Positions 4,573 to 61,755 of a DNA stretch of 62,710 nucleotides are shown piece after piece. The first letter of the stretch is position 1; every line of letters starts with the position of its first letter. A model generated the notes under the pieces. It saw only the letters and a program-made list of their open reading frames with translations. It had not been told where the DNA came from and did not search any database. The DNA comes from Nitrospirae bacterium GWC2_57_13 (GTDB lineage: Bacteria > Nitrospirota > UBA9217), in NCBI GenBank assembly GCA_001805055.1, contig MHDZ01000090.1:1-62710 (forward strand), given 5' to 3'. A program made the position numbers and the translations under genes.

Positions 4573-4590
4573 GGGCAAGGGGTGAGCGAC

Positions 4591-4702
4591 GAGTATGGAG
4601 TTCGGAGTGTGGAGTTATAGCATAGAGCATAGAGCAGAGGGCATAGAGTAGAGAGCAGAGAGTCACCCTATGCACTATGCGCTTTGCGCCATGCCCTCTG
4701 CA
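4591..4702. repeat. Heptamer tandem-repeat hairpin element (copy H1)
   Basis: Ten consecutive 7-nt units (GAGTATG GAGTTCG GAGTGTG GAGTTAT AGCATAG AGCATAG AGCAGAG GGCATAG AGTAGAG AGCAGAG). A turn AGTCACC follows, then five reverse-complement-type units (CTATGCA CTATGCG CTTTGCG CCATGCC CTCTGCA). Confidence 0.85.
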
Positions 4703-4788
4703 GCTCCGTGCCTCCCCCGGCCTCGCATCCATAAAAATCGGAACCGGGGCGGGCGTGGTAAAATCTTTTTAATGTATGGAGGGATCAT

Positions 4789-27136: not shown

Positions 27137-27247
27137 CCCCTCTGCAAAGCCCTTTAATAAGGACTTAATTCATCCTATATATTCAGTTTATCATCCAAGG
27201 CAGGGGGTGTCAAGGGGAGAGGGCGGGTGAGATGCGTGTAGAAGAGA

Positions 27248-27356
27248 CCAGTTCGGAGTGCGAAATCTGAGACGCGAAGACGGGGTGACAGAACGAGTGA
27301 GGGCGGAATGCAGAGTAGGGACGAGAAGTTGGGAAGTTGGGAAGTTGGGAGGATGG
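27248..27356. repeat. Short-period tandem-repeat element (copy H5)
   Basis: Contains the AGTTCGGAGTG word shared with H1/H4, GCAGAGTAGGGA, and (GAAGTTGG)x3 followed by GAGGATGG. Confidence 0.7.
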
Positions 27357-27367
27357 GCGAAGGATGG

Positions 27368-28032
27368 TCAGCTCACGCGCCGTTCAGCGGTCTTTTCCAC
27401 TATGAAGGCATCGAGGGCCGCTTTTTCTTCAGGCCGCAGGTCCAGGAACCTGATGCCGTAGCGGTTCGTCTTATCATCGTATCCGGCAGGCTGGTTCTTC
27501 TCCCGAACGACCTCGCAGGCTGATCTAATCTGCTGTCTCCCGGGGAGGTAGAAGGAGCAGGAAACCCGTGTGCCGATCTCGAGGGGCTGTTCCGTCTCGA
27601 TCAGGAGCCCCGGGGGCCGGTGGCGTCGATCGTAACGCTCAACAGAACACGATATGCGGTCCTTGCAGAGATACTGAGAAGCTGGCGTACGGCCTGGGTA
27701 AAGCGGTCAACGGGCACAGGCTTGATCATGACAGCGTTGGCCCGGCATCCGGCGCCAAAGTCAAGGGCGGTTGCCTCATCCTGGCACAGGATGATGACCG
27801 AAACTTTCGATAGGTTGTGATCGTCCCGGACGAAGGAGCAGAATTTTCGCGTGTCCAGATTGTCCTGCTGAAGATGGACCGCGATCAGATGACGAGGGAT
27901 CATCTCTGCGGCATTTACGGCAGACCGGACCGTCCCGATGTCCGCATTTCTTTCCAGGCAACACGGGAATTCTGCGGGGCATCATCTGGCGAGGCCCTGC
28001 AGCTGCCGGGCGAGCTTGAGATCCTGACCGCT
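27368..28032 (-). pseudogene. Degraded receiver + PilZ gene, divergent paralog of 28090..28851
   Basis: The receiver-like frame (…AEMIPRHLIAVHL…VIILC…NAVMIKPV…RTAYRVLLSV) ends at GPRGS*. The PilZ core (GLLIETEQPLEIGTRVSCSFYLPG…YGIRFLDL…) continues in another frame across the run at 27608-27616. There is an in-frame TGA at 27982-27984 and no start codon. Confidence 0.55.
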
Positions 28033-28089
28033 TCAGAGGCATACTAGAAGCGATCAGCATTCTTCTATTGAAGGCGGAGGGTAAGGCAG

Positions 28090-28851: not shown

Positions 28852-28933
28852 CGAAGGCACGCAGGCATTGTCCGTGCCCGAGGTCTTGTCCTCCACGTGG
28901 AATGCAATACAGAACGATACCAGTTGACCTTCA

Positions 28934-28970
28934 CCCGCAGTCGTCCCGCGTCGCGCGGGACGACTGCGGG
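28934..28970. terminator. Perfect 17-bp inverted repeat between convergent genes
   Basis: CCCGCAGTCGTCCCGCG-TCG-CGCGGGACGACTGCGGG. There is no clear T tract. It carries the GTCCCGC word seen in other intergenic hairpins. Confidence 0.4.
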
Positions 28971-29016
28971 TCGCGTTGTTACATCATGCCCTGGCGTGAC
29001 TGCCGCAGGGGCTCCA

Positions 29017-35460: not shown

Positions 35461-35500
35461 AAAAGCATCAAAGAACAATTCTCAAATTATAAATTTCCAA

Positions 35501-35547
35501 TTCCGGCCTGTCCCGCTTGCGGGGCTTGTCCGGTGTAAGGGGTATTC
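35501..35547 (+). repeat. Conserved leader hairpin element, copy L2 (upstream of ftsY)
   Basis: TTCCGGCCTGTCCCGCTTGCGGGGCTTGTCCGGTGTAAGGGGTATTC, immediately before the ftsY ATG. Confidence 0.75.
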
Positions 35548-36453
35548 ATGTTGGGCGTTCTGAAAACATTCACTGAGGGGATGGCGAAAACCAGGAAGAC
35601 CTTTGCCGATACGGTCGGCTCGCTCATTCTGGGTGACAAGATAGATGAAGCATTCCTTGAAGAGCTCGAAGAGGCTCTGGTTGCCGCTGATGTAGGAATG
35701 ACAACGGCCGCCGCGGTCCTGACGGACCTTAAGGAGCGGCACAGGCGAAAAGAACTTTCCACTCCCGACGACGTGCGGCTACGGCTGCGGCAGATCCTTC
35801 GGGAGATATTGTCCGCCAGCCATAAGCCGTTTGTGGTATCGGCCGTACCCTTCGTGGTGCTCGTGGTTGGTGTGAACGGGACCGGCAAGACCACGACGAT
35901 TGGAAAGCTCGCAAGCCGTCTCGCAGGCGGGGGGAAGAGCGTGATGCTCGCTGCTGCGGACACCTTCCGGGCAGCAGCTGCCGAGCAGCTTTCGATCTGG
36001 GGCGAGCGGTCCGGCATACCGGTCATCAAACACCGCGAGGGGGCCGATCCCGGTGCCGTGGTCTTTGATGCGCTTGCTGCTGCAAAAGCCCGGTCTGTTG
36101 ACGTTCTGATCGTGGATACGGCCGGCAGACTCCATACCAAATCCAATCTCATGGAAGAGCTGAAGAAGGTGAGGCGCATCCTGGAGCGTGAACTGCCGGG
36201 CGCTCCCCATGAGACGTTGCTTGTCGTCGATGGCACCACGGGCCAGAACGCGCTCGTACAGGCAAGAATGTTCCATGAATCGATTGGCGTGACCGGCCTG
36301 GTGATCACCAAACTGGATGGATCGCCGAAAGGCGGGATCCTCTTCGCCATCGCCAAGGAACTGGGCCTGCCTGTCAAGCTGGTCGGTATCGGAGAGGGGA
36401 TCGAGGACCTGCGGGACTTTGATCCCAAGGAATTTGTCGAAGCACTGTTATGA
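35548..36453 (+). CDS. ftsY: Signal recognition particle receptor FtsY (NG domains only)
   Basis: GVNGTGKTTTIGKLA, DTAGR and TKLDG motifs. Confidence 0.95.
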   Translation: MLGVLKTFTEGMAKTRKTFADTVGSLILGDKIDEAFLEELEEALVAADVGMTTAAAVLTDLKERHRRKELSTPDDVRLRLRQILREILSASHKPFVVSAVPFVVLVVGVNGTGKTTTIGKLASRLAGGGKSVMLAAADTFRAAAAEQLSIWGERSGIPVIKHREGADPGAVVFDALAAAKARSVDVLIVDTAGRLHTKSNLMEELKKVRRILERELPGAPHETLLVVDGTTGQNALVQARMFHESIGVTGLVITKLDGSPKGGILFAIAKELGLPVKLVGIGEGIEDLRDFDPKEFVEALL

Positions 36454-36640
36454 GCATGGAGCATAGCGCATAGAGCATAGCGCATAGAGCATAGAGCAGA
36501 GAGCATAGAGCAGAGAGCATAGGGCAGAGAGCATAGGGCAGAGGGCATAGGGCAGAGGGCAGAGGGCATAGGGCAGAGAGATTCATACCCTATGCGCTAT
36601 GCCCCATGCGATATGCATGCATTACCCATGCCCTCTGCCA
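36453..36640. repeat. Heptamer tandem-repeat hairpin element (copy H2, largest)
   Basis: 18 consecutive 7-nt units (AGCATGG, AGCATAG, CGCATAG ... GGCAGAG) span 36453-36578. A turn AGATTCATACC follows, then about 7 reverse-complement-type units (CTATGCG CTATGCC CCATGCG ATATGCA ...). Confidence 0.9.
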
Positions 36641-36651
36641 ATCGTAAACCT

Positions 36652-36933
36652 ATGGAAAGCATCCAGATCCAAATATTCGGCCATACCTACAGCATCAAGG
36701 CGATGGAGAACCCCGAGTATGTCCGGGAGCTTGCCGCCTTCCTCGACGGGAAGATGCGCGAGGTGCAGCAAGGCACAGGGACGGCCGATCCGCACCGTGT
36801 CGCGATCTTGACGGCCCTGACCATCAGCGATGAGCTGTTCCGCCTGCGTGAACGGTGCGGCACCATTGAGCAGTCCGCCGACCAGGCCGTCGAGCGGATG
36901 CTTGCCCTCACCGGCGATGAAGGAGCGCGCTGA
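36652..36933 (+). CDS. zapA: Cell division protein ZapA
   Basis: 93 aa. IQIFGHTYSIKA…EYVRELAAFLDGKMREV…AILTALTISDELFRLR is the typical ZapA pattern. The upstream part of listed ORF 36592 lies in the repeat. Confidence 0.8.
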   Translation: MESIQIQIFGHTYSIKAMENPEYVRELAAFLDGKMREVQQGTGTADPHRVAILTALTISDELFRLRERCGTIEQSADQAVERMLALTGDEGAR

Positions 36934-37036
36934 GGTGTTGGCGCGACTGACGGCAATGCCAGGCCTTGCCCCTCTTATGTCATTGAAAGTAAAGACTATT
37001 TTTGCAGCATCAGTAGAACGGCGTATGATTTTCTCC

Positions 37037-37082: not shown

Positions 37083-37267
37083 AAAGTCCCCTGCGTTGTG
37101 CGTGATAGATATTAACTTGATCCTCGTGAAAAAATTAAAACGGGAGCTGTCCCTGGAGAGGGTGTGCATGCCCAGATTAGACTGGGAAGCCTAAACTTTC
37201 CGATATGGCACCCACCTGGCATACGACCAGGTTCAAGCGTATCTGCACGGCAATGGCGGGGGACTTT
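37083..37267 (+). ncRNA. ssrS: Candidate 6S RNA
   Basis: 185 nt, directly 3' of zapA as in E. coli. The 5' end AAAGUCCCCUGC pairs with the 3' end GCGGGGGACUUU, extended by GUU/AAU and GUGC/GCAC. There is an A/U-rich internal region and an apical CCCAG-AUUAGA-CUGGG hairpin. No convincing ORF is present, and a GGGAAGC-GGG-GCTTCCC hairpin follows at 37279-37295. Confidence 0.5.
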
Positions 37268-37711
37268 CAGATTATTTCGGGAAGCGGGGCTTCCCTGGTT
37301 CGTTATACAAAGAAACCGAACAGCGCCAGAAGAAGGGAGCGGCAAGTAAGGAAGGCTCCAGCGCTTGTGATAGTGTTACACTACGGAAGAACGGTACGTT
37401 GCGGGAAGCACGATGAACAGTTGCTGTTCTGATCCGGGGCGTCCGTCGGGCAAGAAATTTAAAAGCGGCTCAACAGAAGAAATACGATGCAGATCAATCT
37501 ACATATATCTGGACGCCATCTCCTGGATGCGGGTTTGTTCCGCGCAGAGGAATCGGGTGCTCTCGGTTTGTTCGCCGACTCGGGCGTCATGAGGGGCCAG
37601 CATCTGCCACCCCCCTCGTCCATGATCGTATAAACGCTGTTGCCGTTTCTCTATCCGCTTGCTCTGTTCCCGTCCTGTCACCAGCCCTGAAGCGCCTTCC
37701 TGAAGTCATCG

Positions 37712-40606: not shown

Positions 40607-40608
40607 CG

Positions 40609-40661
40609 CGCAGAGAGCAGAGAGCGGACAGGTTCATACCCTATGCGCCATGCTCCATGCG
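40609..40661. repeat. Heptamer tandem-repeat hairpin element (copy H3, short)
   Basis: CGCAGAG AGCAGAG AGCGGAC, then turn AGGTTCATACC, then CTATGCG CCATGCT CCATGCG. The turn and first reverse unit are nearly identical to H2. Confidence 0.85.
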
Positions 40662-47743: not shown

Positions 47744-47748
47744 GAAAT

Positions 47749-47815
47749 AGTTCGGAGTCGAGAGTTCGTAGTTCGGAGTAAAGCAAGGATAGTTCGAGTG
47801 ATCGAACTCCGAACC
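47749..47815. repeat. Heptamer tandem-repeat hairpin element (copy H4, AGTTCGG variant)
   Basis: AGTTCGG AGTCGAG AGTTCGT AGTTCGG AGTAAAG CAAGGAT AGTTCGA, then GTGA, then TCGAACTCCGAAC. It lies between convergent tlyA and the DUF3786-like gene. Confidence 0.85.
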
Positions 47816-47832
47816 CCCAACTGTTGTACTCG

Positions 47833-58170: not shown

Positions 58171-61100
58171 TCACACTTTGACCACCGGTTCCAGCCTGCT
58201 GCTGTCAAGGAAGAGCAGATAACCCTCCACCTGCTTCAGCCTGAAGATCTCCTTCACCGCCTCGCAGTAGATTCTGACCTGGGGCAGATAGTGTTCCTTC
58301 CATGATGCGGCCGCATCCTGATCCTCGATCATGATCGCCTTGTAGTCGATCACAAAGCCCTTACCGTCCTTCACGATCACGCGGTCGATCACGCCGCTCA
58401 CCAGATCGTTCCCTTTACGAAGCAGGAAAGGCAGTTCCGCGTAGGCATCGGGAGAGGGTTCGAAGATCCATCCCAGGCCGGCATTTCCAGTAATAGATTT
58501 CATGACCAAACCCACATCGGTTAAAAACCGCTCCCGCACGTCATGGTCGAGCGTCTGCATCTCAGGATACTCCCCGAGAACGGCTTCCAGGTCGTATGAT
58601 CCTTTCTTCGCGTATTCCTCAAGACAACGGTGGAGGATGATGCCACGCAGCCGCGGGGAGACGGACCGACCCGCCTGCACGAGTGGCTGATCCATGTCCC
58701 ATTCCTTCTCGTCGTTAATGTAATCTATCGCTTTTTTCCATTCCGGCGTGTCAACTACATCAAGGTGGCGCAGGTTAGCGAGAACGGCAGCGCTGTCAAC
58801 TGCAACAGTTGGGCTGGACTGCTCAGGTGATCTTTTTCCAACTCCGTACTGCTCCGGCATATGTGTTTGAGCTGCCCAGTCCGGGTATGATCGCTTCACG
58901 ACTGCCGGGCCACTATTCTCTGCCCTCTGCGAAGGGACCGCGAGCGCCCCGTACAGATAGCTCAGCCATGTATTGTCCTTGGCAGGCTTACTGCTGTCGT
59001 TGGGAGTGCCGATCATGAAGAGGTGGTCCCGGGCCCGCGTCATGGCAACATAGAGAAGCCGCTGATGCTCACGTTTCAGTTCCTCCTTTTCCCGCTCCCA
59101 CAGCTCATCATAGACCGGGCTATCCGCGTCCTTCAAGGCCATCCGAACGCGGTCGTCGGATTCGACGATCGCGAGAGGCCCGGCAGTGAGGGACCGGGGC
59201 TGCTGGTTCAGGCCCGGCAGGAAGACCACGGCAAATTCCAGTCCCTTGGCCTTGTGCACCGTCATGATGCTGACTGCGCCCTGGAATCCGGGAAGGTTCA
59301 TGTCCGCTGTGGCCTCGCGCTGCTCAGCCTCGCGGATGTTCCTGACCCACTCCACGAAATCCTGCAGCGTGGTGTAGCCCCGGCGGTCGAAGTCCCGCGC
59401 CGTATCGAGCAGCTTGTCGAGATTGAAGATGGCCTGGGGGTTCTGTTTGCCGAAGCGTATGTATGCGCCCGAGTCCTGAATGATCCGGTGAATCAGCCCG
59501 GCGAGAGGCTCGGTGCCCGCGTACTTCGACCAGTCGTTGAAGCGGGACCATGCCTGGGGCTGCCGCTCCCGGAGGACCGGGAGCGCATCCTTGTTGCCGG
59601 AAAAGACGTCGACGATGGCCTGGTCCGGGAGGCCAAAGAGCGGGGACCGGAGCGCTGCTGCGAGGGCAAGCCGGTCGTCGCGGTTCCAGAGGAAAAAGAG
59701 GGTGTTCAGGATCGCCTGGATCTCGTCTTCCTCATAGAACCCGATCCCGCCGACCACGCGGAAGGGAACGCCTTCCTGCTTCAGGGCGGCCTCGTACTCC
59801 TTCAGCCGTGTGCGGGACTGGATGAGGATCGCGCAGTCGCCGTACTGGACGGGTCGGGTTTTCCAATCATCATCCAATCCCCCCGTGCCCCCCTTTGTTA
59901 AAGGGGGGATTTCTTTTCCTCCCCCTTTGGAAAAGGGGGATGGAGGGGGATTTGCAGGAGAGGTCTTTTCATGCACGAGAGTCCCGTTATCGACCAGTGT
60001 TCTGATTTCGAGTGCCAGCACCCCGGCTTCGCTCAGGCCTATCTCTGTCCCTGTCTGTTCGCCAAGGAAGACCTCGATCAGCTGCACGCTTCCCTGGTGC
60101 CTGTTCCGATCTGTTGCGGAGCGCTTGTACGCTTCGCCCCAGAGAGCGCTGAAAACCTGATTCACTGCCCCGATCACCTCGGGCACGGACCGGTAATTCT
60201 TATCCAGCGTGCGTATCTCTCGCGTGCCGGGCAGCAGGCTCTCTTCCATTTTCGTGCGAACGTTCTCGATGAGGCGATAGTTCGCCTCGCGGAAACGGTA
60301 GATGGACTGTTTCGCATCGCCCACAACAAAGAGGGTTGAAGGCATGGGCTTGTCCGCGCCGAGGCCTGCGAATATCTCCTCGGTCAGCTTCCGGAGAACA
60401 GCCCACTGGATGTCGCTCGTGTCCTGGAACTCGTCGACCAGGAAATGGAGTATCTTGCGGTCGAGCCAGTAGAGGATCTCAGGAGAGTCCGCGCCTTTCA
60501 GCAAACGGTAGGCGAATATCTCCAGGTCATCGAAGTCCAGGAGCCCCTCCCGCAGCTTTGCGGACCGGTAGTTCTCTTCAGCGCGGAAGAAGAGACGCAG
60601 AAGGCTCAGGGCTTCCCGGCCTGCCTGGGCGCGATGATAAGCAGCAAAGAACCGCGACAGGACATCCTGGACCTGCGAAGAGAGCGTTTCGTAAACAGTA
60701 TAGGGGAATGTTGTCTTGGCGAGGTATTTTCCTTTTGCTAGTGGAGGTCTTTTTCGGGGCTCGGCCTTCTGGGTGAAATAAACGGGCCTGATCAACTCGG
60801 CAGTTCGATAGGCTGCATGCACATCAGGCGCTATGGCGAGAGAGCCGTGTTCCGCACCGCGGCACTCTGCATACTGGTCAGGCTGCGACCTTAGCAGGAG
60901 CTCCATCTGCAGAAAGAGGGCCTTCCAGTCCGGGTCCCTGATAAGCGCGTTCATCTCCGCTTCCGCAGCCGGGGTCTCCATGCCGGAACTGACAATGATG
61001 AGCAGGTTAGCGGGGCCGCCAGCGTCGATCTCCAGTCGCTTGATCCTGCTCCTGAGGGAGAGCAGGAAGGCGATCGTATCGATCAGCTCATCGGCGCCGA

Positions 61101-61631: not shown

Positions 61632-61737
61632 CTCGCAGAGCACGCAGAGGACGCAGAGTTAAATCGAAATCTTTAGGTTTGTTTTAAACACATAAGCTGG
61701 ATTTGCTCGGCATTTCTCTGCGAACTCTGCGCCGCGA
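61632..61737. repeat. 9-nt tandem-repeat hairpin element in the addB-addA spacer
   Basis: CTCGCAGAG CACGCAGAG GACGCAGAG (61632-61658) and, about 57 nt later, CTCTGCGAA CTCTGCGCC GCGAG (61716-61737). Confidence 0.75.
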
Positions 61738-61755
61738 GCATATTCCCGTCCTTCT

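Follow-up and report, generated by a model that had tools for sequence, protein, structure and literature searches.

The intergenic region between ftsY and zapA in Nitrospirae bacterium GWC2_57_13 (GTDB lineage Bacteria; Nitrospirota; UBA9217) contains a heptanucleotide repeat array that is a real, unusually long member of a known, functionally unexplained class. The array resides in a contig of 62,710 nucleotides (nt) (MHDZ01000090.1, forward strand, GenBank assembly GCA_001805055.1), the whole of which is referred to here as the window. Tandem 7-nt units are followed by a short turn and then by units of reverse-complement type. Our tentative explanation is that the element is a hypervariable heptanucleotide repeat whose opposed arrays, an "inverted repeat pair", form an imperfect hairpin, which, if it acts at all, would do so in the ftsY-zapA transcript as a stem-loop between the coding regions. 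The components of this junction, in window coordinates, are the following.

35548-36453, plus strand: ftsY, encoding the signal recognition particle receptor (TIGR00064 ftsY, 351 bits, E 3e-105).
36453-36578, plus strand: left arm, 18 heptamers in tandem that also show a higher-order 14-nt pattern (Tandem Repeats Finder and unit parsing).
36579-36589, plus strand: turn, AGATTCATACC, 11 nt; turn and right-arm start are held in common with a copy at 40630.
36590-36640, plus strand: right arm, 51 nt, about seven units of reverse-complement type (direct reading; invariant in all assemblies).
36537-36639, plus strand: core imperfect hairpin predicted in both the minimum free energy (MFE) and centroid structures, with 36537-36552 paired to 36625-36639 and 36557-36571 to 36590-36604.
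36536-36573, plus strand: G-quadruplex-type motif, six GGG tracts with 4-nt loops (regular-expression scan; motif only).
36649-36654, plus strand: zapA start context, CCTATG(G), paired in the MFE structure with 36518-36523, a CATAGG in the spare portion of the left arm.
36652-36933, plus strand: zapA, 93 amino acids (NF010724 ZapA; PF05164; start positions in relatives).

The array begins within the upstream gene, in that the final base of the ftsY TGA stop, which is followed directly by GCATGG, is also the first base of the first heptamer. From there the units run in the order AGCATGG, AGCATAG CGCATAG (twice), AGCATAG AGCAGAG (twice), AGCATAG GGCAGAG (twice), and GGCATAG GGCAGAG GGCAGAG GGCATAG GGCAGAG, 15 of the 18 matching the consensus RGCAKAG. 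Tandem Repeats Finder detects the tract at 36452-36580 with period 7 (18.4 copies, score 139) and also with period 14 (7.9 copies, 94% matches), with scores of 139-157. The right arm reads CTATGCG CTATGCC CCATGCG ATATGCA TGCATTA CCCATGC CCTCTGC CA, its fourth and fifth units being degenerate, and 12 nt separate its end at 36640 from the zapA ATG at 36652. The heptamer pattern is far above chance: the two-unit word GCAKAGRGCAKAG, with at most one mismatch, has 29 matches in the window against 0.73 expected. A preliminary description of this DNA had proposed the same layout of heptamer array, turn, and reverse-complement array, with 18 uninterrupted units counted from the last base of the ftsY stop and an end 12 nt ahead of the zapA ATG, and direct reading together with Tandem Repeats Finder confirms each of these points.

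RNA folding of the array gives an MFE of -83.4 kcal/mol (z-score -4.45), and none of 200 shuffled sequences folds equally well. The long imperfect hairpin that had been suggested for the two arms is thus upheld as a predicted fold, but only the approximately eight left-arm units nearest the turn participate in it, leaving about 10 of the 18 spare. This core is predicted to be common to alleles of 20, 18, and 14 units. The G-rich segment that partly coincides with it, at 36536-36573 in the proximal left arm, is the longest G-quadruplex-type motif of the window in the regular-expression scan; within the array, GGG tracts are confined to this segment, leaving the distal half, like most sibling copies, devoid of them.

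Variation in the array is confined to the number and order of left-arm units. The locus was retrieved by exact-protein look-ups from many groundwater metagenome assemblies and metagenome-assembled genomes (MAGs) of the Rifle aquifer, and the contigs examined differ in sample and assembler of origin; 15 cover the array from end to end, and 13 of these are free of gaps. Seven contigs carry the 188-nt spacer (the window and six assemblies, one of them a Logan assembly produced with a different assembler), two carry a spacer of 160 nt, and spacers of 202, 167, and 139 nt occur in one contig each. A sixth allele, with 14 units in a different internal order, resides on contig L236, which ends in the turn. 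On the basis of these assemblies, the same Nitrospirota population therefore contains six alleles of 11-20 left-arm units. The differences in length are all multiples of 7, all fall in the left arm, and amount to combinations of three independent block indels, in which whole blocks of 7, 14, or 21 nt have been gained or lost. By comparison, the turn, the right arm, and 2,500 nt of flanking sequence show no mismatch in the 11 contigs checked. Head-to-tail 7-nt units that change in copy number by whole units make the array a heptanucleotide simple-sequence repeat in the sense of Mrazek et al. (2007), who, as cited by MacGregor (2015; PMC4679880), described heptamers as the commonest long simple repeats and proposed polymerase slippage. 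The earlier conjecture of a slipped-strand variable spacer, for which a comparison of unit numbers had been proposed, is borne out by this series of length and order alleles, 11-20 units in steps of 7, between identical flanks.

It is scarcely credible that assemblers created the array or its differences in length, and this reading is already largely refuted. In its favor, two MAG scaffolds (L004 and L006) contain N-gaps inside the array and four further contigs (L009, L010, L235, and L236) break off in or near it. Such N-gaps and contig ends also fit co-existing alleles, however, and the end of one k127 contig coincides with the point of divergence of the allele classes, just as co-existing alleles would have it. 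In a de Bruijn graph test, each allele alone proved branch-free at k≥31 (k≥41 for the longest); an assembler would therefore not collapse the array, and collapse is ruled out as the source of the alleles. Nor could collapse of other alleles yield the one on L236. The identical 188-nt version emerges from at least three pipelines, and homologous arrays are present in relatives. The array and its length variability are thus real, as read from assemblies rather than raw reads. Two shorter arrays in the window, referred to as copies B (about 11 left units) and C (about 3), are invariant in 5 and 10 assemblies, respectively, which is expected if slippage depends on array length.

Similar elements can be found at the corresponding junctions of related genomes. 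Homologs of this FtsY place the organism among uncultured Nitrospirota, the closest homolog being 92% identical and the remainder at most 78%, and the gene order yhaM-like, ftsY, zapA, 6S, rarA, rny, ymdB, xseA is kept among them. Between ftsY and zapA, the 92% relative has only 4 left units (GCATGAA GCATGGC GCAGAGC GCAGAGA), a turn of GACTCATA(C/G)CC, and a short right arm, as opposed to 11-20 units here; the left arm has therefore expanded in the lineage of the window. Two relatives with 76% identical FtsY carry approximately 7 GCATAG units with other turns, and in further relatives the junction has degenerate hairpins of GCA type, hairpins composed of quite different short repeats, an unpartnered purine-rich array, or nothing. 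Most lineages thus have a repeat-built hairpin directly behind the ftsY stop, with differing numbers of units and often different words. At the rny-ymdB junction, a hairpin follows the stop directly in 10 of 10 lineages (z -1.8 to -6.7), and, apart from one that is not repeat-built, these hairpins draw on at least five different sets of words.

The yhaM-ftsY junction is bare in the window and in its closest relative (92% FtsY), and contains strong heptamer hairpins in four other lineages, with z-scores of -2.8 to -7.3:

L134, 9858-10003: yhaM-ftsY hairpin.
L135, 9855-10003: yhaM-ftsY hairpin.
L136, 9872-10003: yhaM-ftsY hairpin.
L148, 4870-5003: yhaM-ftsY hairpin.

Words at this junction are shared within subclades, GGAAATT/CCAATTT by L134 and L135 and AATGCAA-type words by L136 and L148. 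In L134 and L136, a small GC-rich hairpin resides directly after the stop, ahead of the large one. Within the single genome of L135, different junctions have different words (GGAAATT, GCATAGA, CAGGAGC), which argues for local generation and against one mobile element. Arrays in relatives are situated -3 to 30 nt after the ends of open reading frames (ORFs). Junction hairpins are thus common in the clade, are inherited in place for a time, are quickly remodeled, and are sometimes lost, and each junction tends to have its own words. The GCATGG or GCATGA directly after the ftsY stop (36454-36459 in the window) is conserved even in L136, a relative that has no array at this position, and CCATGG is the usual start context of zapA in the clade. 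Conceivably, these complementary hexamers could be a seed of heptamer expansion.

Arrays with these words are not restricted to Nitrospirota. A scan for three GCAKAG units, with one genome per species, yielded at least 120 loci, the source genome not being among the matches listed. Among those listed are loci from Cyanobacteria (Microcoleus, Nostoc, Scytonema), Saprospiraceae, other Bacteroidota, and delta-type proteobacteria, as well as from Nitrospirota, Omnitrophota, Patescibacteria, Acidobacteriota, and Planctomycetota; different heptamer words occur side by side in many of the genomes, and in Nostoc and Microcoleus GCATAG/GCAGAG-type arrays adjoin words resembling those of the cyanobacterial STRR (short tandemly repeated repetitive) sequences. 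A reverse-complement partner lies within 120 nt downstream in 15 of the 120 listed arrays (L011-L130) and upstream in none, so that among the matches listed the G-rich array of an inverted pair always comes first, on either strand. The rny-ymdB spacer of one Nitrospirota relative (L144), in which the C/A-rich arm is first, is an exception to this polarity. In Microcoleus, an array of (GGGCATA)n with 3 to more than 19 units resides inside a dispersed inverted-repeat element, TATAGCCTTTCTCAG..ATGAGGT-array-ACCTCAC..TTGAGAACCGCTATA (L043, L050, L089, L096, L116, L118, L121, and others), which looks like a MITE (miniature transposable element with inverted repeats) that carries a variable array of heptamers.

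Repeat hairpins of this kind have already been described in Xanthomonas, Nostoc, and Haemophilus, and the array here is a new example, not a new kind. The preliminary description had known of no equivalent for the self-complementary layout, but the Xanthomonas and Nostoc pairs (PMC4692102) and the Haemophilus hairpin arm (PMC12721329) were already published. G-rich heptamers of Xanthomonas (GGGAATC) and Nostoc (GGGGAYT) form tandem arrays of 2-26 units, 89-93% of them intergenic (Rehm et al., 2015, PLoS One, PMC4692102). There are 183-186 such arrays per Xanthomonas genome, at a mean distance of 28 nt from the upstream ORF versus 160 nt to the next, and 70-75 convergent inverted GGGAATC pairs with stem-loop potential, which occupy the same gene junctions in two species while varying widely in length and sequence (PMC4692102). 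The array in the window likewise has the form of a convergent inverted pair (left GCAKAG, right CTMTGC, 11-nt turn), with the polarity found in all 15 listed pairs of other phyla, the same turnover, and a proximal G-quadruplex motif. It is intergenic and nearer to the upstream ORF, starting 0 nt after the stop or, more exactly, inside the stop codon, and copies B and C start right after stops. Unlike the Xanthomonas pairs, it uses the words GCATAG/GCAGAG with GGG only in proximal units, occurs in the phylum Nitrospirota, has strongly unequal arms (18 versus 7 units), belongs to a set in which each junction may have its own words, and varies within one natural population, where that variation is documented.

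In Haemophilus influenzae, the (ATCTTTC)n repeats of hmw1A/hmw2A are transcribed in the 5′ untranslated region, where a long hairpin takes its left arm from them (Rapun-Araiz et al., 2025, NAR, PMC12721329). The hmw1A hairpin accommodates ten units in its left arm and is cut by RNase III; additional units lower expression but do not alter the fold, and unit number varies in nature (PMC12721329). The likeness to the present array is that of a heptamer repeat upstream of a gene and on its strand, which provides the left arm of an imperfect hairpin and varies in unit number, with about eight units predicted to pair and 3-12 spare in the observed alleles in the manner of the hmw extra units. The right arm in hmw is a unique G-rich stretch, however, rather than a series of reverse-complement repeats, and the hmw array, in a host-adapted pathogen, has a promoter on one side and an adhesin gene on the other, whereas the element here has many siblings and sits behind a stop codon among clustered housekeeping genes. 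For hmw, cleavage by RNase III and dependence of expression on the repeat have been demonstrated; the corresponding feature here is a predicted, allele-dependent pairing of the zapA AUG.

Another set of abundant intergenic heptamer direct repeats, TAACTGA, is scattered across phyla (marine Beggiatoaceae, cyanobacteria, Bacteroidetes), and a post-transcriptional role has been proposed for it (MacGregor, 2015, PMC4679880). These repeats differ from the present array in that they sit just upstream of start codons, in 2-6 copies, and are essentially without inverted pairs (one indirect repeat in 170 sets). The STRR sequences of heterocystous cyanobacteria (Mazel et al., 1990, by way of PMC4692102 and PMC4679880) are reportedly also intergenic tandem heptamers, with several word families per genome, and are said to be defined by taxon and by the words CCCCAGT, TTGGTCA, and CAACAGT. 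The likeness to them that had been pointed out earlier is real as regards intergenic tandem heptamers, and membership is excluded by the words GCATAG/GCAGAG and by FtsY relatives that are Nitrospirota. In enterobacteria and pseudomonads, the REP/BIME/REPIN sequences are imperfect palindromes behind stops in operons that shield upstream mRNA from 3′ exonucleases; REPs are conserved over 20-40 nt, present in hundreds of copies, and mobilized by RAYT transposases. The array shares with them the position of an imperfect palindrome in the spacer behind a stop codon, but is composed of tandem 7-nt units with words that change from junction to junction.

Several other identities can be set aside, the main array being neither a gene nor a CRISPR array nor an intrinsic terminator. 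A Rho-independent terminator, one of the roles suggested earlier, finds no support in the sequence: a U-tract is lacking, 36454-36651 contains no terminator-like site, and the stem is followed by AATCGTAAACC. A promoter scan of the ftsY-zapA spacer likewise returned no promoter-like site. The period of 7 nt and the lack of spacers set the array apart from CRISPR, with its 21-48-nt repeats and unique spacers, as the preliminary description had rightly stated. Rfam and tRNA scans of the window gave nothing at the array, the only Rfam match being a 6S RNA (37085-37266). A minus-strand ORF at 35487-36569 is an artifact of reading through the repeats, and an intramolecular triplex was dropped on inspection, since the units are not mirror repeats.

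The start of zapA requires separate consideration. In relatives, the gene begins at a conserved ATGGAGAGC/ATGGAAAGC, matching the 93-amino-acid start at 36652, and the 113-amino-acid version that starts at 36592, at an ATG inside the right arm, is therefore an artifact. Several public gene calls (L001, L003, L005, L007, and L008) contain this longer model, and the repeat thus misleads gene callers. In this lineage, zapA is without a Shine-Dalgarno sequence, and its start context, AACCTATGG, resembles a right-arm unit. Partition-function folding, an equilibrium model, gives the following predicted probabilities that the AUG pairs with a spare left-arm unit:

20-unit allele: 0.91.
18-unit allele: 0.89.
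14-unit allele: 0.77.
11-unit allele: 0.48.
15-unit allele, without the terminal 3-unit block: 0.11.

It could be that the element behaves as a rheostat akin to that of hmw1A, in which the hairpin would be transcribed and possibly cut by RNase III, spare units would pair with the zapA start, and unit number would tune the synthesis of ZapA. The mimicry of a right-arm unit by CCTATGG at a start that has no Shine-Dalgarno sequence, the range of predicted AUG pairing over a natural allele series (0.91 to 0.11), and the constancy of the predicted core in the 20-, 18-, and 14-unit alleles all agree with this, as does the hmw precedent, in which 10 units make the left arm, extras do not affect the fold, and expression drops as units rise (PMC12721329). 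We nevertheless consider it improbable. The pairing comes from an equilibrium folding model and its trend is not monotonic, and ribosomes that terminate translation at the end of ftsY would interfere with the distal units. In addition, zapA is a housekeeping gene rather than a typical contingency gene, hairpins of the same kind occur at many unrelated junctions, and co-transcription of ftsY and zapA is itself presumed. A broader proposal, that heptamer hairpins constitute a functional RNA class behind stops in several phyla, produced by a sequence-independent process with a 7-nt step and a G-rich arm first, with spare units here tuning zapA translation through the start codon, appears just as improbable.

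Other repeats in the window bear on how such elements arise:

4586-4724, plus strand: copy B, directly after the stop of a galT-like gene; hairpin z -3.06.
40607-40661, plus strand: copy C, directly after the stop of rny (RNase Y); hairpin z -2.83.
47746-47825, plus strand: hairpin of AGTTCGG-type heptamers, 5 nt past a tlyA-like stop, between convergent genes; z -3.82.
61632-61738, no strand assigned: hairpin containing CGCAGAGNA units of 9 nt, some 19 nt past the upstream gene's stop; z -3.53.

Copies B and C have the layout and GCAKAG words of the main array (copy A). Copy B consists of GTNNGGA units, 7 CAKAGAG units, a turn of AGTCACC, and then CTATGCA CTATGCG CTTTGCG CCATGCC CTCTGCA, and copy C of two GCAGAGA units followed by a turn and right-arm start identical to those of copy A. 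This shared 19-nt sequence, AGRTTCATACCCTATGCGC, has exactly two matches in the window, at 36579 and 40630, where none is expected. All hairpins in the window start 0-19 nt after a stop codon, and period-7 arrays occupy 4 of its approximately 38 spacers. The family outlined in the preliminary description holds for copies B and C and for the hairpins it placed at 47749-47815 and 61632-61737 (z -3.8 and -3.5), and not for 27248-27356: all listed copies were folded, and this one alone does not form a hairpin (27240-27365; z -0.76), being instead a purine-rich stretch with an 8-nt repeat. Likewise, the "almost identical turn" ascribed to two of the copies is exact at 40630 and merely similar at 4591-4702 (AGAGTCACCCTATGCAC).

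In the explanation that we tentatively prefer, strand slippage would enlarge and shrink the arrays, and the arms would be kept complementary either by template switching, with one arm copied from the other within the strand, or by selection for pairing. The resulting stem-loop on a polycistronic ftsY-zapA RNA may serve, between ftsY and zapA, as a barrier or a site of processing that shapes both the upstream message's 3′ end and the accessibility of zapA, and the number of spare distal units would be nearly neutral. Support for such a role at the level of RNA is weak. A number of observations weigh against it. When 18 elements were folded both ways, sense and antisense structures matched in stability (summed difference +3.5 kcal/mol), and antisense gave the better fold for copy C and for the main copy; these 18 elements thus give no sign of RNA-level selection on the sense strand, and the lack of bias means that the test does not separate RNA from DNA roles. 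The element is missing from the ftsY-zapA junction in three relatives (L140, L144, and L151), the yhaM-ftsY hairpins come and go between lineages, and the 19-nt turn common to copies A and C is unexplained by local generation alone. Moreover, the Xanthomonas repeats are transcribed, and GGGAATC forms a G-quadruplex in vitro, but no regulatory role was found for them (PMC4692102). The array may instead be a pure mutational by-product, in which repeats and their inverted partners accumulate in tolerant intergenic DNA, mainly just after stops and away from promoters, with no function for the cell. We regard this as rather unlikely, while giving it nearly the same weight as the preferred reading because the 18 elements show no difference in folding between the two strands and some relatives do without the element. 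Its presence or absence at the same junction across relatives, the rapid turnover of words, the failure of experiments in Xanthomonas to reveal a role (PMC4692102), and the occurrence of the same kind of array in many phyla among the matches listed are all as a by-product would have it. It accounts less well for a rny-ymdB hairpin that persists in every lineage though its sequence is replaced, for arms that stay complementary through changes of word, and for the strict polarity of inverted pairs (15 versus 0 among the matches listed).

Two further proposals fare worse. A small mobile or gene-converting element, MITE- or REPIN-like, might spread the GCAKAG hairpin between intergenic sites, and the identity of copies A and C over 19 nt at a distance of 4 kb, the similarity of copy B, and the clearly dispersed Microcoleus element with its internal heptamer array are suggestive in this regard. 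Outside the arrays, however, no terminal inverted repeats or target duplications are seen, none of the 18 window ORFs scanned is a transposase, junctions in a relative's genome have their own words, and the ftsY copy was inherited in place from an ancestor common with the 92% relative, which together make such an element quite improbable. It is more improbable still that the array functions through GGGNNNN units that form a G-quadruplex in competition with the hairpin, or that bind a single-strand-binding protein in a 7-nt register. The six GGG tracts with 4-nt loops at 36536-36573 would allow a quadruplex, and GGGAATC repeats of the same format form one in vitro (PMC4692102). Half of the array (AGCATAG, CGCATAG, AGCAGAG) is without G tracts, though, as are copy C, the hairpins at 47746-47825 and 61632-61738, and many of those in relatives, while copy B has one, and no candidate binding protein was identified.

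Some additional features of the window were noted. Directly downstream of zapA is the 6S RNA gene (37085-37266, plus strand; Rfam RF00013, 107.8 bits, full length), with a sigma-70-like site at 37001-37029 and a weak terminator-like site at 37285-37297. Linkage of zapA and ssrS is classical. The hairpin at 61632-61738 is flanked by two minus-strand helicase-nuclease genes (one with a UvrD-like helicase and a PD-(D/E)XK nuclease, the other with a PD-(D/E)XK nuclease), and two perfect GCAGAGG units (GCAGAGGGCAGAG) lie at 58918-58930 on the minus strand within the UvrD-like helicase-nuclease coding region. The rejected purine-rich stretch belongs to a 953-nt spacer (27137-28089) between two divergent genes, one NmrA-like and the other for a response regulator that has a PilZ domain; this spacer contains three copies of GAAGTTGG (especially 27322-27357) and a G-quadruplex-type motif (27331-27357), forms no hairpin, and has the word AGTTCGGAGT in common with positions 4600 and 47750/47771. 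Finally, a perfect 18-bp GC-rich palindrome (CCCGCAGTCGTCCCGCG TCG CGCGGGACGACTGCGGG) without a T-run resides between convergent genes at 28933-28971, which points to hairpins lacking U-tracts as marks of gene ends in this genome.

Several bacterial phyla are rich in intergenic heptamer repeats, whose function has awaited an explanation since 1990. To this class the ftsY-zapA locus adds a clear Nitrospirota case, a natural series of alleles from one aquifer population in which all else is constant, and orthologous junctions at which the hairpin persists while the repeat words are replaced. Together, the allele series and the orthologous junctions make it testable whether the hairpin is selected or arm-templated, and whether unit number alters downstream expression. 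In practical terms, such arrays break metagenome assemblies, with contig ends and N-gaps falling within them, and mislead gene callers. If the tuning of zapA by spare units were true, the element would correspond, for a housekeeping gene of an environmental bacterium, to the hmw repeat switch of Haemophilus, and the aquifer alleles would be expression variants. The locus is chiefly valuable as a clean natural setting in which the action of heptamer hairpins can be tested.

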